Assembly (NCBI GenBank): GCA_019058365.1
Contig: JAHPZE010000009.1
Span: 67,034 to 131,033, forward strand
Direction: 5' to 3'
Origin: Promethearchaeota archaeon
Lineage (GTDB): Archaea; Asgardarchaeota; Lokiarchaeia; Sigyniarchaeales; SOKP01
DNA length: 64,000 bases
Part shown: in pieces, positions 38,519 to 42,401 of the stretch
Layout: each line of letters opens with the position of its first letter
Numbering within the stretch: the first letter of the stretch is position 1
The notes under the pieces: model-generated
Databases searched by the model: none
What the model was told of the DNA's origin: nothing
What the model saw: the letters and a program-made list of their open reading frames with translations, nothing else
Translations under genes and position numbers: made by a program

Positions 38519-39658
38519 TTATGTTTTTTTTAATTCCATCTGGGAAATTGCTTTTCCAGATCGGAATGGAATATCTTCAAGAGACATGCCTGCTTCATAT
38601 TTAAACTTCTTCTTAAAGGCTTCATTTAATGATTGGAAATATAGCGACAATGGTAAGTTTTGAGGACAGTTATTATCACAATTTCCGCATTCTACACATC
38701 TATCAGCATCATGAGCTATACGTGTTAATTGATATGTTGCTTTATCAATGTTTTTATCTTTCCTCTTCTTCTGTAATATACAATCCACGCAATAACAAAC
38801 GGGACAACCTCGAATACATGTATTGCACATAGTACATTTAAGTAATTCTGCAATTTTATCTTTTTGTGAGAGATTTTCCCATTCTGCTAGATCTTTAGCT
38901 CTTTTTTCTTTAGCTTTTTCGATTATTTCATTATATTTATCTGAATGTGCTTTTTTCTCCTTATCTGGAAGTGATTTTTTCTTGATTCCTGATTTCTCCA
39001 ATATATCATTTCCTTTATCAGAATACACTTTCAAGATAATCTCATCCGAATCAACTGGAATTCCAAGATCGCTTACAGTCAAATCAGCGACTACCGGAAT
39101 TTTGCGATAGCATCTCAAACAATTCTCAGCAACAGTAAGATTAAGCTCTTTTGTGCTTCCATCTTCCATCTTCACGATAAGACCGTTGTCTCCCACCTTT
39201 TCTTTTACAATTTTAGTTGGATCAACATCCTTAATCGCTCTCATTTCTCGTCCTGCTTTGGGAAGTAGCCCTCTATCTTCAATACCAATTATAAAGAGAT
39301 TATCAAGATTTATTTGCTTGATCTTTGCAAGTTCTATTAGTGCTCTCGTATCGCAAGGACGAGCAATTAATCCTACTTTTTCATTCATCGCACCTGCAAC
39401 AGATTTATGCAGATATTTTGAAGCAGAGTCTGTTCTTGCATAGCCAAATGCAATTAAAGGAGTTAATGGAAAATCCTTCACATCTTCTTCTTTTTCTGCT
39501 AATATAGGCTGAACAGTAAACCTGTCTATAGTCCCGGATTTCTTATCAACTCTCAATTCAGCACCGATTATTTTATCTACTGCTTTTTCTTTTAATAAAG
39601 TTGCTAAAATTTTAGAAAAATCTTCAATCTTTATCAAATATTCTGCTATTGCTTCCAT
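38519..39658 (-). CDS. F420 hydrogenase/formate dehydrogenase beta subunit (FrhB/FdhB family) with 2x[4Fe-4S]
   Basis: ARPCDTRALIEL, NCLRC..ADLTVSD, CTMCNTCIRGCPVCYC and CVECGNCDNNCP. Confidence 0.88.
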   Translation of the reverse strand: MEAIAEYLIKIEDFSKILATLLKEKAVDKIIGAELRVDKKSGTIDRFTVQPILAEKEEDVKDFPLTPLIAFGYARTDSASKYLHKSVAGAMNEKVGLIARPCDTRALIELAKIKQINLDNLFIIGIEDRGLLPKAGREMRAIKDVDPTKIVKEKVGDNGLIVKMEDGSTKELNLTVAENCLRCYRKIPVVADLTVSDLGIPVDSDEIILKVYSDKGNDILEKSGIKKKSLPDKEKKAHSDKYNEIIEKAKEKRAKDLAEWENLSQKDKIAELLKCTMCNTCIRGCPVCYCVDCILQKKRKDKNIDKATYQLTRIAHDADRCVECGNCDNNCPQNLPLSLYFQSLNEAFKKKFKYEAGMSLEDIPFRSGKAISQMELKKT

Positions 39659-39764
39659 GTAATCCCAACTCTATCTATCTACTTAACTAATATTTTTTTT
39701 AAATTTCTCAAATTTTTTGAAACATATTTTAAATATTTTTACTTAAATTTTTTAAACTATTTTT

Positions 39765-39837
39765 ATGTGTTATATGGTGCACCCATTTCTTCAACTGAGT
39801 TCTCACTTTTTTAACTCAATCTCATCAGTAAACACAT
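39765..39837 (-). promoter_or_regulatory. Eukaryote-like SECIS element in the 3' UTR of mvhD
   Basis: mRNA sense: AUGUGUU-uacug-AUGAG-AUUGAGUU-[AAAAAAGUGAG]-AACUCAGU-UGAA-gaa-AUGG-gugca-CCAU-au-AACACAU. It has a 7-bp helix I, an AUGA/UGA tandem G.A core, an 8-bp helix II and an A-rich apical loop, and begins 9 nt after the mvhD stop. Confidence 0.85.
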
Positions 39838-39845
39838 TAAATTTT

Positions 39846-40304
39846 TTAAGCCTTAGCTTTTGCTTTAGCTTTCTCTTTTTTAGGTGTGCCTTTCGAACGT
39901 AGCGGGCTTGGTCCTAATTTATGGACTGTCTTATCGATTTCTATTGCTTCGTTTTGAAATTTCTGTCCTTCAGCTGCGGTACAATAGATTATTTTTATTC
40001 TATCTGGGCTCATTCCAACAACTTTTAATATTTCTTTAGTGTATTCAACTTGTCTATATGCATGGTAATTTCCAGTCTCATAATCACATTCACCTGGGTA
40101 TCAAGCATTAATTACAACAGCATCTGCGCCTCTTCCAAATGCGCGCATAATTAAGTCAGGTCCTACACGTCCAGAACAAGGTACTAAAATGTTTCGTATT
40201 GAATCAGGATATTGAGCGCGGATTGTACCTGCCATATCGGCACTCCCATAACCTCATTTCCAGCAAGCAAAAACAATTATTTTAATATCATTTTCTTCTG
40301 CCAT
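39846..40304 (-). CDS. mvhD: Methyl-viologen-reducing hydrogenase delta subunit (MvhD/VhuD), selenoprotein with Sec17 and Sec68
   Basis: Absent from the ORF track. MAEENDIKIIVFACWK-U-GYGSADMAGTIRAQYPDSIRNILVPCSGRV..GADAVVINA-U-YPGECDYETGN..CTAAEG..LGPSPL, 152 aa. TGA at 40254-40256 and 40101-40103, stop TAA, RBS GAGGT. Confidence 0.93.
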
Positions 40305-40317
40305 GTTTCTTACCTCT

Positions 40318-42294
40318 CTATTCCTCTATTGGTAATAATACATCCATTAATGCCATATATTGTTCGTCTCTAAAGTATGCTAACTCAATTGCATGTGAAG
40401 GACACAACGAGGCACAGGTCCCGCAACCTCGACAATTAATTAAATTCACCACGAGATTTCCTTTTTCATTTACAGATATAGCGCTATATGGACAAGCTTC
40501 TATACATTTATAGCATTTAGCGCAACGTTCATCTGATGGCGTCGCTCTGATTAATTCCATAGTATATTCTCCCTTACTCATAGGAATTCCCGCTACTGAT
40601 GCAGCTCCTCGAGCTTGACTCACTGCTTTATCAATCTCTTTCTGTCCTTGAGCTGAACCGCAGATATATATACCAGGTACTTTAGTGCTAATTGGATCAA
40701 GCCGAGCATGATATTCCTTTAAGAAACCATCAGGACTTTTCTCCATGTTTAGTACTTTAGCAATTTCTATCGTACCTTGGGATGGAAGTGAAGCAGATGA
40801 TAATATAACCATATGAGCTTCCATTTTAACAACAGAATCAGTTCCAACTGGTTCAAATTGTACTAAAAGATTCTTCGTTAAAGGATCTTCTTCAATTTTT
40901 CCAACCATTCCTTTTACAAAGATAGTTCCAGCATCACGGGATCTTCTATAATATTCTTCATAATCCTTCCCGGCACATCTCATATCTATATAGCAACAGA
41001 TAATTTGTGAATCAGGATATTCTGATTTGATTAATTTAGAGTTTTTAAGCGAAAGGTTGCAGCATATAACACTGCAATGAGCATTTTTATTTACATCTCT
41101 TGATCCTACACAATTTATAAATATAATTTTAGTAGGACGCTTTCCATCAGAAGGACGCTTTAAATGTCCATATGTTGGACCATTTGGAGCGAGGATCCTT
41201 TCTAATTCTATCTGATTGATTACATTATCATAAGTACCATATCCATAATCATTACCTTGATAGAGATCCCAACCGGTAGCTACGATTATTGTACCAACTT
41301 TAAGTTCAACAATTTTATCCTTTTGACTAAAATCTATCGCTTCTTGTTCACATGCATCGACACATGCGAAGCATTCAATGCATACATTTCTCTCAAGTTG
41401 TGACACTGCAGGTACTGCTTGAGCAAAAGCAATATCAATGACTTTTCTTGCTGATAAGTGCTCATCAAAATAGTTACTCGTGTAAACTGGGCATACGTCT
41501 CGACAGGTTCCACATCCTGTACATTTCGTTTCATCAACAAATCGTGCTTTTCTTCTCACTTTGACATTGAAATTGCCAATATATCCATCTATCACATCAA
41601 CTTCACTATATGATAAGATTTCTATATTTGGATGGCGATTAGCTTCTAGCATTTTCGGTCCCAAGATTCATATAGAACAATCATCTGTAGGGAAGGTTCT
41701 ATCGAGTTGGGACATACGTCCGCCAATTGTTGTATTTTTTTCAACTAAATATACCTTATATCCAGCATCACCTAAATCGATAGCGGCAGATAAACCTGCA
41801 ATTCCACCACCTACTACTAAAGCTGCGGGTTCTACTGGTACGGTTTTAGTAGGCACATCTTCCAATAATTTCGCTCGAGCAATACCAGCTTTGATTAATT
41901 CAATAGCTTTTAAAGTAGCTTTTTCACGTACTTCTGGAGCTTGGTGTACAAAGGAACAATGCTCTCGAATGTTAACGAATTCTAAGTATCTTGGAGGTAA
42001 ACCCATCTCTTTTAATATTGCGTGAAAAACGGGTTGATGAGTTTTTGGAGTACAAGCAGCAACTAAAACCCTATCAAATTTAAATTCTGCATGTCTTTCC
42101 TTGATTTCAGTAGATCCACCTTCCGTACATAAAGAGAGATATGGATAAGCCCAAACATTATCTAATTTATTTATTTCCTCGACAATCTTTGGAATGTCTA
42201 AGATTCCTGCGATATTGACACCTCAATGGCATACGAACACACCTATTCTTATTTGATCTTCGTCATTATTTTCATTGGTCTGTTTATCAGACAA
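40318..42294 (-). CDS. hdrA: Heterodisulfide reductase subunit A, selenoprotein with Sec24 and Sec209
   Basis: TTG start after AGGTGA. One continuous frame joins both track ORFs: RIGVFVCH-U-GVNIAG (TGA 42223-42225) and TFPTDDCSI-U-ILGPKM (TGA 41668-41670). 658 aa with GGGIAG FAD motif and several CxxCxxCxxxC; stop TAG. Confidence 0.93.
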
Positions 42295-42300
42295 ATTCTT

Positions 42301-42401
42301 CACCTTTAGTTAGAATAACCTCCTAACTTTTAAAGATCGACTATTTCATAGATTAGTTTTTCATACTAATCCCAGAAATACTAATGATAAAGTAAATAGT
42401 C
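42301..42401 (-). promoter_or_regulatory. Candidate structured 5' leader of hdrA
   Basis: Inverted repeats GACTATTT/AAATAGTC, GATTAGT/ACTAATC and AGTTAGGA/TTCTAACT, plus ATCTTT/AAAGGT overlapping the RBS. Confidence 0.45.

Follow-up and report, generated by a model that had tools for sequence, protein, structure and literature searches.

Putative three-way junction, with a closing helix and a third hairpin, in the SECIS element shared by hdrA and vhuD of an Asgard archaeon

The window, by which we mean the whole stretch of 64,000 nt that was analysed from the 4.74 Mb genome (29.5% G+C) of a Promethearchaeota archaeon, carries on its minus strand the genes hdrA and vhuD, an RNA element and a frhB/fdhB-like gene. 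The hdrA gene (40318-42303) is an ORF of 661 codons in which two in-frame TGA codons are read as selenocysteine (Sec, U), and its Pfam matches are the FAD/NAD and 4Fe-4S domains typical of HdrA. After a spacer of 13 nt it is followed by vhuD (also named mvhD or frhD, FlpD family; 39846-40304, 152 codons; Pfam PF02662, E = 1e-40), which has its in-frame TGA codons for Sec at 40256-40254 and 40103-40101 and its stop codon TAA at 39848-39846. The RNA element starts 8 nt past this stop codon and extends from 39837 to 39765. It is the only match of our covariance model R1 in the window, and no second SECIS was found there with this model. The frhB/fdhB-like gene (38519-39658, Pfam PF04432), which is reported for context only, begins 106 nt after the element and has the same orientation.

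Both TGA positions of vhuD are conserved, with two TGA codons in the matches from genome sequences and tryptophan (W) in database homologues. In the protein database, the VhuD homologues P0014, P0018, P0033, P0050, P0113 and P0065 show W in place of both Sec residues. TGA has evidently been taken for a tryptophan codon by public gene callers, and Asgard selenoproteins sit in the protein databases as full-length but mistranslated entries. The loci nearest to this vhuD all come from Asgard MAGs that are labelled Promethearchaeota or similar.

In 5′ to 3′ direction the RNA reads AUGUGUU-UACUG-AUGA-GAUUGAGUU-AAAAAAGUGAG-AACUCAGUU-GA-AGAA-AUGG-GUGCA-CCAU-AU-AACACAU, and all coordinates given for its parts refer to the minus strand. 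The outermost segments AUGUGUU (39831-39837) and AACACAU (39771-39765) pair with each other as helix I, which is also predicted by RNAalifold and shows 99% column identity in an alignment of 53 orthologues. In other groups of SECIS elements its sequence is replaced by unrelated but complementary strands. Between helix I and the AUGA core (39822-39825), which is invariant in the 53 orthologues, lies the 5′ junction strand UACUG (39826-39830). Helix II consists of the 9 nt strand GAUUGAGUU (39813-39821) and of AACUCAGUU (39793-39801); it follows from pairing, from RNAalifold and from compensatory changes. Its first pair is G.U in this copy and is frequently mismatched in relatives, as the comparative alignment reveals. 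The apical loop AAAAAAGUGAG (39802-39812) has 11 nt with a run of A and ends with AG. Helix II is followed by the dinucleotide GA (39791-39792), found as GA in 52 of the 53 orthologues and as AA in the remaining one. A linker of 4 nt, AGAA (39787-39790, 92% column identity), connects it to the third arm, helix III, with the sequence AUGG-GUGCA-CCAU (39774-39786), for which the stems are 99-100% identical and the G-C of the loop is invariant among the orthologues. The dinucleotide AU (39773-39772) then leads to the 3′ strand of helix I.

All features that had been listed in the original prediction, which was made from this sequence without database searches, are thus present on the minus strand at 39765-39837: helix I, a kink-turn-like core, helix II, the apical loop and the AUGG-GUGCA-CCAU hairpin. 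It had also placed the element inside the operon and upstream of the frhB-like gene, in agreement with its location between vhuD and the co-oriented frhB-like gene. The core and helix II had to be shifted in register, to AUGA/GA and 9 bp with a first G.U pair instead of AUGAG/UGAA and 8 bp. Overall, the observation is confirmed, while its interpretation is partly supported.

The prediction that this is a SECIS agrees with published descriptions. As defined for Lokiarchaeota, lokiSECIS elements have an AUGA motif, a 9 bp stem and a subsequent GA (rarely AA), together with a loop of 11 nt that has A in the first five positions and ends with a G preceded by A; they are found just past the stop codon, and one copy is common to each hdrA-vhuD pair (PMC4989117). 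Huang, Xiao & Zhang (2024) refer to the same element as type I eSECIS-like (PMC11227280). Each of these features, i.e. the position, AUGA/GA, the 9 bp stem, the 11 nt loop and sharing by an hdrA-vhuD tandem, is found in the element at 39765-39837. Judged by its sequence, it is a SECIS with the published Lokiarchaeota core, and both hdrA and vhuD have the in-frame TGA codons that such an element serves. It follows that the short helix II was already known. The original prediction had compared it to eukaryotic SECIS elements, which is not the proper reference, as a helix II of 9 bp and a loop of 11 nt are defining features of lokiSECIS (PMC4989117).

Eukaryotic SECIS elements of form 1 (Rfam family SECIS_1) share with the Asgard element the tandem sheared pairs of AUGA/GA and the unpaired adenines of the apical loop and, like it, work over a distance from a site 3′ of the gene. 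They differ in that helix II of the eukaryotic element has about 12 bp or more instead of 9 bp, that the Asgard element bears a hairpin which branches off the 3′ strand of the "internal loop", and that its G.A pairs are flanked by a Watson-Crick pair and a 3 nt bulge in the manner of a standard k-turn. Eukaryotic SECIS elements of form 1 are bound by SBP2, a protein with an L7Ae domain. According to published papers, SBP2 is not known in archaea.

None of the Rfam SECIS families matched at its gathering score in the whole window, nor at E <= 10 in the region 39700-39900. The only matches that shared the signature of the core at this latter threshold were weak ones to C/D snoRNAs (15-22 bits). 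Together with the sequence CUGAUGA, which resembles a C box, they suggest a k-turn RNA that has nothing to do with Sec, either a box C/D-like sRNA or a regulatory site for L7Ae that belongs to the frhB-like gene. This we consider extremely improbable: the scores are far below the gathering scores of 41-50 bits, a D box as well as C′ and D′ boxes are absent, CUGAUGA alternates with CUAAUGA among the orthologues, the A-rich loop and the 9 bp stem are features of SECIS elements, and the same fold is found behind Sec-encoding genes of unrelated families (see below).

When folded as a single sequence, the element is thermodynamically unremarkable. Its minimum free energy is -15.3 kcal/mol (z = -1.72) and 10 of 200 shuffled sequences fold equally well, although the centroid structure is a three-way junction. 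The case against a chance structure rests on comparison.

We collected 80 orthologous or paralogous vhuD loci, which gave 81 sequences including that from the window. The core was found by descriptor in 71 of the 81 sequences, and a covariance-model search of nine others revealed it in all of these. Each of the 80 loci has both the closing helix and the 3′ hairpin. The vhuD loci fall into two paralogue groups, and the element from the window belongs to group 1 together with about 60 other loci. As the two groups were misaligned when MAFFT was applied to them jointly, they were aligned separately, and covariance models were used thereafter. Model R1 was built from group 1 only; as all divergent elements were lost with default filters, it was run with filters switched off. 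It then found 16 of 18 paralogous vhuD elements in full length and at the right place, and also, again in full length, all 8 other SECIS elements that were known at that time in the genome.

Within group 1, AAUGUGUU, AUGG-nnGCn-CCAU and AACACAU are all 99-100% identical. In contrast, identity is 81-85% for helix II, which covaries, and drops to 65% in the 3′ flank and to 60% for the FrhB-like protein. In helix II, 8 of 9 pairs show compensatory changes among the 53 orthologues. For the same set, RNAalifold predicted the same three helices unaided, and 95.8% of the alignment cells are paired, compared to 30-44% when the partners are slid. The three-way junction with a kink-turn core, as originally proposed, is thus supported by RNAalifold and also by the covariance models. 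In group 2, helix I has the unrelated sequence ACCGA/UCGGU, and the stem of the third arm occurs in the compensatory variants CCUU/AAGG, CCAU/AUGG, CAUU/AAUG and CCCU/AGGG. It should be noted that helices I and III are nearly invariant within group 1, so that their covariation arises between groups, for which positional homology is assumed.

The two groups also differ in their gene context. A frhB-like gene is found downstream in all 60 group-1 loci whose sequence extends far enough, in each case on the same strand, and in none of the group-2 loci. The SECIS subtype of group 1, with its GAA linker, a loop ending with GAG and AUGUGUU in helix I, is strictly tied to the hdrA-vhuD-frhB-like cluster (loci L001-L065).

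The original prediction had treated the additional hairpin as a peculiarity of one element. This is not the case, as it is present in every Asgard SECIS that could be parsed. A descriptor scan together with model R2 revealed ten type I elements elsewhere in this genome, which follow four vhuD genes, a stand-alone hdrA, a gene for a Prx-like protein, two genes for small proteins and two paralogous genes with adjacent Sec codons. Adding the element from the window and two of type II, each belonging to a selD gene, gives 13 SECIS elements in this genome, and a closing helix and a 3′ hairpin occur in all 13, including both type II elements. The stand-alone hdrA, which has 678 codons and two Sec codons, carries its own SECIS 14 nt past its stop codon (C16:346822-346912, plus strand) with no vhuD in between, and is thus an exception to the rule that the hdrA element is always shared with vhuD.

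Model R2 has matches in all 25 genomes of the family to which the window belongs, with 1 to 10 matches per genome and about 170 in total; 60 further matches were retrieved and aligned. Outside of this family, only few matches were obtained under strict filters. At least six further families (f2, f8, f13, f16, f19 and f23) also have vhuD genes with two Sec codons. We inspected the 3′ regions of five of these (f2, f8, f13, f16 and f19) by eye. In f2, f13, f16 and f19, the layout is the same while the sequences of helix I and helix III are wholly different, two examples being CCGCC/GGCGG with CCCU-caaaGCA-AGGG and CUGCUGC/GCGGCAG with CCCCU-GCG-AGGGG. In family f8, the third hairpin is clear, while the closing helix is weak or was not seen. 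R2 detects 14 of 20 loci from other families, and none of the three from f8.

Covariation was quantified in three alignments, with a total of 20 pairs in each. In alignment A5, 91.8% of the cells are paired (88.3% for helix I, 98.6% for helix III), compared to 35-49% with slid partners. For A6, which contains 71 diverse elements, the value is 91.7% (helix I 86.6%, helix III 97.2%; slid partners 37-50%), and for A8, with elements from other Asgard families, it is 90.3% (helix I 88.7%, helix III 93.3%; slid partners 34-42%). All 20 pairs change on both sides in each of the three alignments, and all four pairs of helix III covary in A6. A check of helix conservation and covariation, which had been suggested with the original prediction, thus has a positive outcome, with 90-92% paired cells against 34-50% in the slid controls. 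As these alignments were fitted to the structure of the model and are biased towards it, alignment-free tests were also performed. When the 24 nt after GA were folded for 138 unique elements, every one of them formed a hairpin with 3 bp or more, and the mean minimum free energy was -4.27 kcal/mol as opposed to -1.76 kcal/mol in shuffled sequences. In constrained folds, the complete junction was obtained for 64 of 79 elements, compared to 22% when the flanks were shuffled. Covariance models and alignment-free tests, which together cover more than 200 related elements, point to the same three-armed fold. Sequence comparison thus establishes that the core is identical to that of lokiSECIS and that all three arms are conserved and covary across Asgard selenoprotein genes. 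The fold itself, Sec insertion and any binding partner of the element are what we infer from this.

The linker from GA to the third hairpin has four bases in most elements; it is shorter in some and has two bases in family f16. Its sequence is AGAA in group 1 and CnnA in the general type. The stem of helix III usually has 4-6 bp, and its loop nearly always contains a G followed by C or U. For the GC of this loop, we searched the junction strands and the apical loop by eye for a complementary conserved GC that might form a pseudoknot or a loop-loop contact, and found none. Dimerisation via the palindrome GGUGCACC of this copy was also considered and was rejected, as the common GAGCA variants are not palindromic.

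Published models require only the core hairpin. The SECIS might accordingly consist of AUGA, helix II and GA alone, with helix I and the 3′ hairpin being a separate feature of the mRNA end such as a stabiliser, a processing site or a terminator; the element is indeed located at the end of the vhuD cistron, and helix I is poorly formed in some elements, being weak or consisting of A/U pairs only. However, the hairpin follows about four bases after GA in most elements irrespective of the gene, also behind selD and where the element overlaps the stop codon. In addition, helix I encloses the core hairpin together with the third arm, so that they belong to one fold, and the same-strand gene that follows after 106 nt at this locus has its counterpart in all 60 readable group-1 loci. 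A terminator was rejected because no U run follows the element. We thus regard a separate mRNA-end feature as unlikely.

Another possibility is suggested by the methanogen-type SECIS of euryarchaea, in which an asymmetric GAA_A bulge separates the lower stem from an upper one made of consecutive G/C pairs. In group 1, GAA directly precedes the AUGG...CCAU hairpin and an A follows it, so that a second SECIS of this type could reside beside the eukaryote-like one. Huang et al. described eaSECIS-like structures downstream of eSECIS-like ones, with both co-occurring in 3.4% of the genes, and deemed them to be non-functional (PMC11227280). The GAA is specific for group 1, the general type having CnnA in its place, and the AUGG/CCAU stem has only two G-C pairs, not the clamp of three consecutive G/C pairs of methanogen elements. 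Furthermore, the hairpin occurs in every element examined, far more often than in 3.4%. A second SECIS is thus very improbable. The 3.4% may instead have been glimpses of helix III in GAA-bearing elements like that at 39765-39837. The vhuD SECIS of Methanococcales and Methanopyrus (Mariotti 2016, Fig. 4B), which we compared by its published description, has the GAC in common with the general Asgard type. Its GAA_A bulge and G/C clamp are located within the main stem, and a third hairpin is not part of that description. In summary, a single three-armed SECIS accounts better than each of the alternatives for the uniform spacing, for a helix I that encloses the other arms, for the absence of a U run and for the occurrence behind unrelated selenoprotein genes.

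The junction next to the core has additional regularities. AUGA is preceded by a purine (A or G), and the nucleotide one position further 5′ pairs with the one directly after GA. In the general type, all 70 elements have G-C at this pair, and this accounts for their conserved GAC; U-A or U.G takes its place in each of the 53 group-1 elements, and A-U in family f2. At the second pair, all 53 group-1 elements have C-G, and 43 of 58 elements elsewhere have AU, UA, GC or GU. In family f19, even four pairs are found (GUAG/CUAC). These features would make the core a standard k-turn, composed of a short C helix, a 3 nt bulge R-A-U, the G.A/A.G pairs and the NC helix. In the copy from the window, the C helix would be formed by C39828-U39827 and A39790-G39789. 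The bulge position L1 would be G39826, while the A and U of AUGA would be L2 and L3, and the G and A would form the tandem sheared pairs with GA (39792-39791), which is part of the non-bulged strand. What the original prediction had described as an internal loop is better understood in this way, its kink-turn character being retained.

K-turns that are part of a three-way junction have been described as k-junctions by Lilley's laboratory for the TPP riboswitch and for DUF-3268 RNAs (Wang et al. 2014, PMC4005666; Li et al. 2023, PMC10573300). There, a k-turn with tandem G.A pairs has an extra helix on its non-bulged strand. The Asgard element has the same strand topology as far as sequence and pairing can tell. 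The connector has two bases in k-junctions and four in the Asgard element, where one to four of them are paired with the 5′ strand. K-junctions whose third helix likewise lies on the non-bulged strand play only an architectural role and do not bind L7Ae (PMC10573300), because the extra helix blocks access. As the third helix of the Asgard element is set back by the short C helix, binding of L7Ae is neither implied nor excluded. The genome contains only two genes of the L7Ae family (PF01248), on contigs C51 and C52, and no further paralogue that would be a candidate for an SBP2 equivalent.

With a probability of roughly 80%, we consider the element to be the SECIS of the hdrA-vhuD pair in which the k-turn arm, the closing helix I and the third hairpin form a three-way junction. 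The k-turn arm would consist of the 2 bp C helix, the bulge G-A-U, tandem G.A/A.G pairs, the 9 bp helix II and the A-rich loop of 11 nt; the small third hairpin, its loop having the conserved G-pyrimidine, would branch from the non-bulged strand four bases past GA. The single copy past vhuD would permit Sec insertion at all four UGA codons, the most distant of which is about 2.4 kb upstream. Most likely, the SECIS brings Sec-tRNA(Sec) and an elongation factor to the ribosomes that translate hdrA and vhuD. The junction may hold the RNA in its kinked shape, a role that the third helix has in k-junctions, and the archaeal Sec-specific elongation factor or an adaptor might dock to a surface formed jointly by the third arm with its loop, the k-turn and the A-rich loop.

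How archaeal SECIS elements in 3′-untranslated regions are linked to the ribosome is an open question, and no protein that binds them is known; archaeal SelB was reported not to bind SECIS (PMC4989117). The core hairpin of a lokiarchaeal element was found to be inactive in Methanococcus maripaludis (PMC11881835), a result that does not tell whether the core alone suffices. Should the three-way junction with its conserved third arm be what functions, this negative heterologous test, for which apparently the core hairpin alone was used, may have to be redone with the full junction. The third arm would then also be a concrete bait to pull down the missing binding factor, and search patterns for Asgard selenoproteins could be made far more specific, as illustrated by R2 with its matches in each genome of the family.

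The closing helix and the 3′ hairpin appear to be the new part; the SECIS family is known and its published model seems to be incomplete. It has been depicted as a single stem-loop or as a lower stem with an internal loop (PMC4989117, PMC11227280, PMC13188914). The main texts of Mariotti 2016, Huang 2024 and a 2026 review (PMC13188914) mention no third hairpin, no three-way junction and no paired C helix beside a 3 nt bulge, and the main texts of Sun 2021 and Peiter 2025 do not describe a third arm either. The supplementary material of Huang 2024 that was examined contains no SECIS structures, and full-text literature searches that combined SECIS with "three-way junction" or used the name "lokiSECIS" returned nothing relevant.

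Asgard SECIS elements are the main evidence for the transition of the Sec machinery from archaea to eukaryotes, and have hitherto been modelled as eukaryote-like hairpins. The comparison with eukaryotic SECIS elements would have to be redrawn if what functions is a k-turn seated on a three-way junction whose third arm is conserved in sequence. A more far-reaching proposal, which taken as a whole we consider possible but somewhat doubtful, is that the Asgard SECIS is such a k-turn on a three-way junction and not a shortened eukaryotic SECIS, that its third arm, whose G-pyrimidine loop is nearly invariant, docks the reader (the Sec elongation factor, or L7Ae/L30e with an adaptor), and that this arm was lost in eukaryotes when SBP2 took over.

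Some further observations on selenoproteins were made in the course of the analysis. No tRNA-Sec was found above the cut-off of the Rfam model in this assembly, where the best weak matches were tRNA-Gly and tRNA-Ser, despite the presence of at least 13 SECIS elements and of two selD genes that themselves contain Sec. Either the tRNA-Sec gene is missing from the assembled contigs, or it has diverged too far to be recognised by this model. In family f19 (G038:C1:6018-6419, G088:C584, G070:C99), the vhuD matches with two TGA codons are part of open frames of 592-595 aa, which suggests that vhuD is fused to its neighbour in this family or that the frame runs on across the gene boundary. In the genome of the window, SECIS elements at C16:318489-318577 and C35:297165-297252 (both on the plus strand) are located behind small ORFs that apparently code for membrane proteins and have a single Sec codon each, in the motifs GGCGUGG and CFUH, respectively; the element on C35 has a GUGA core in place of AUGA. 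The two paralogues with adjacent Sec residues, each about 160 aa long (motifs HADUU and GCUU), are encoded on the plus strand of contig C34 of this genome (G000) at 290230-290712 and at about 292000-292500. They match no Pfam family and may represent an undescribed selenoprotein family with a diselenide-type motif. Each of their genes has its own three-armed SECIS (290709-290793 and 292498-292585; loci L096 and L097).
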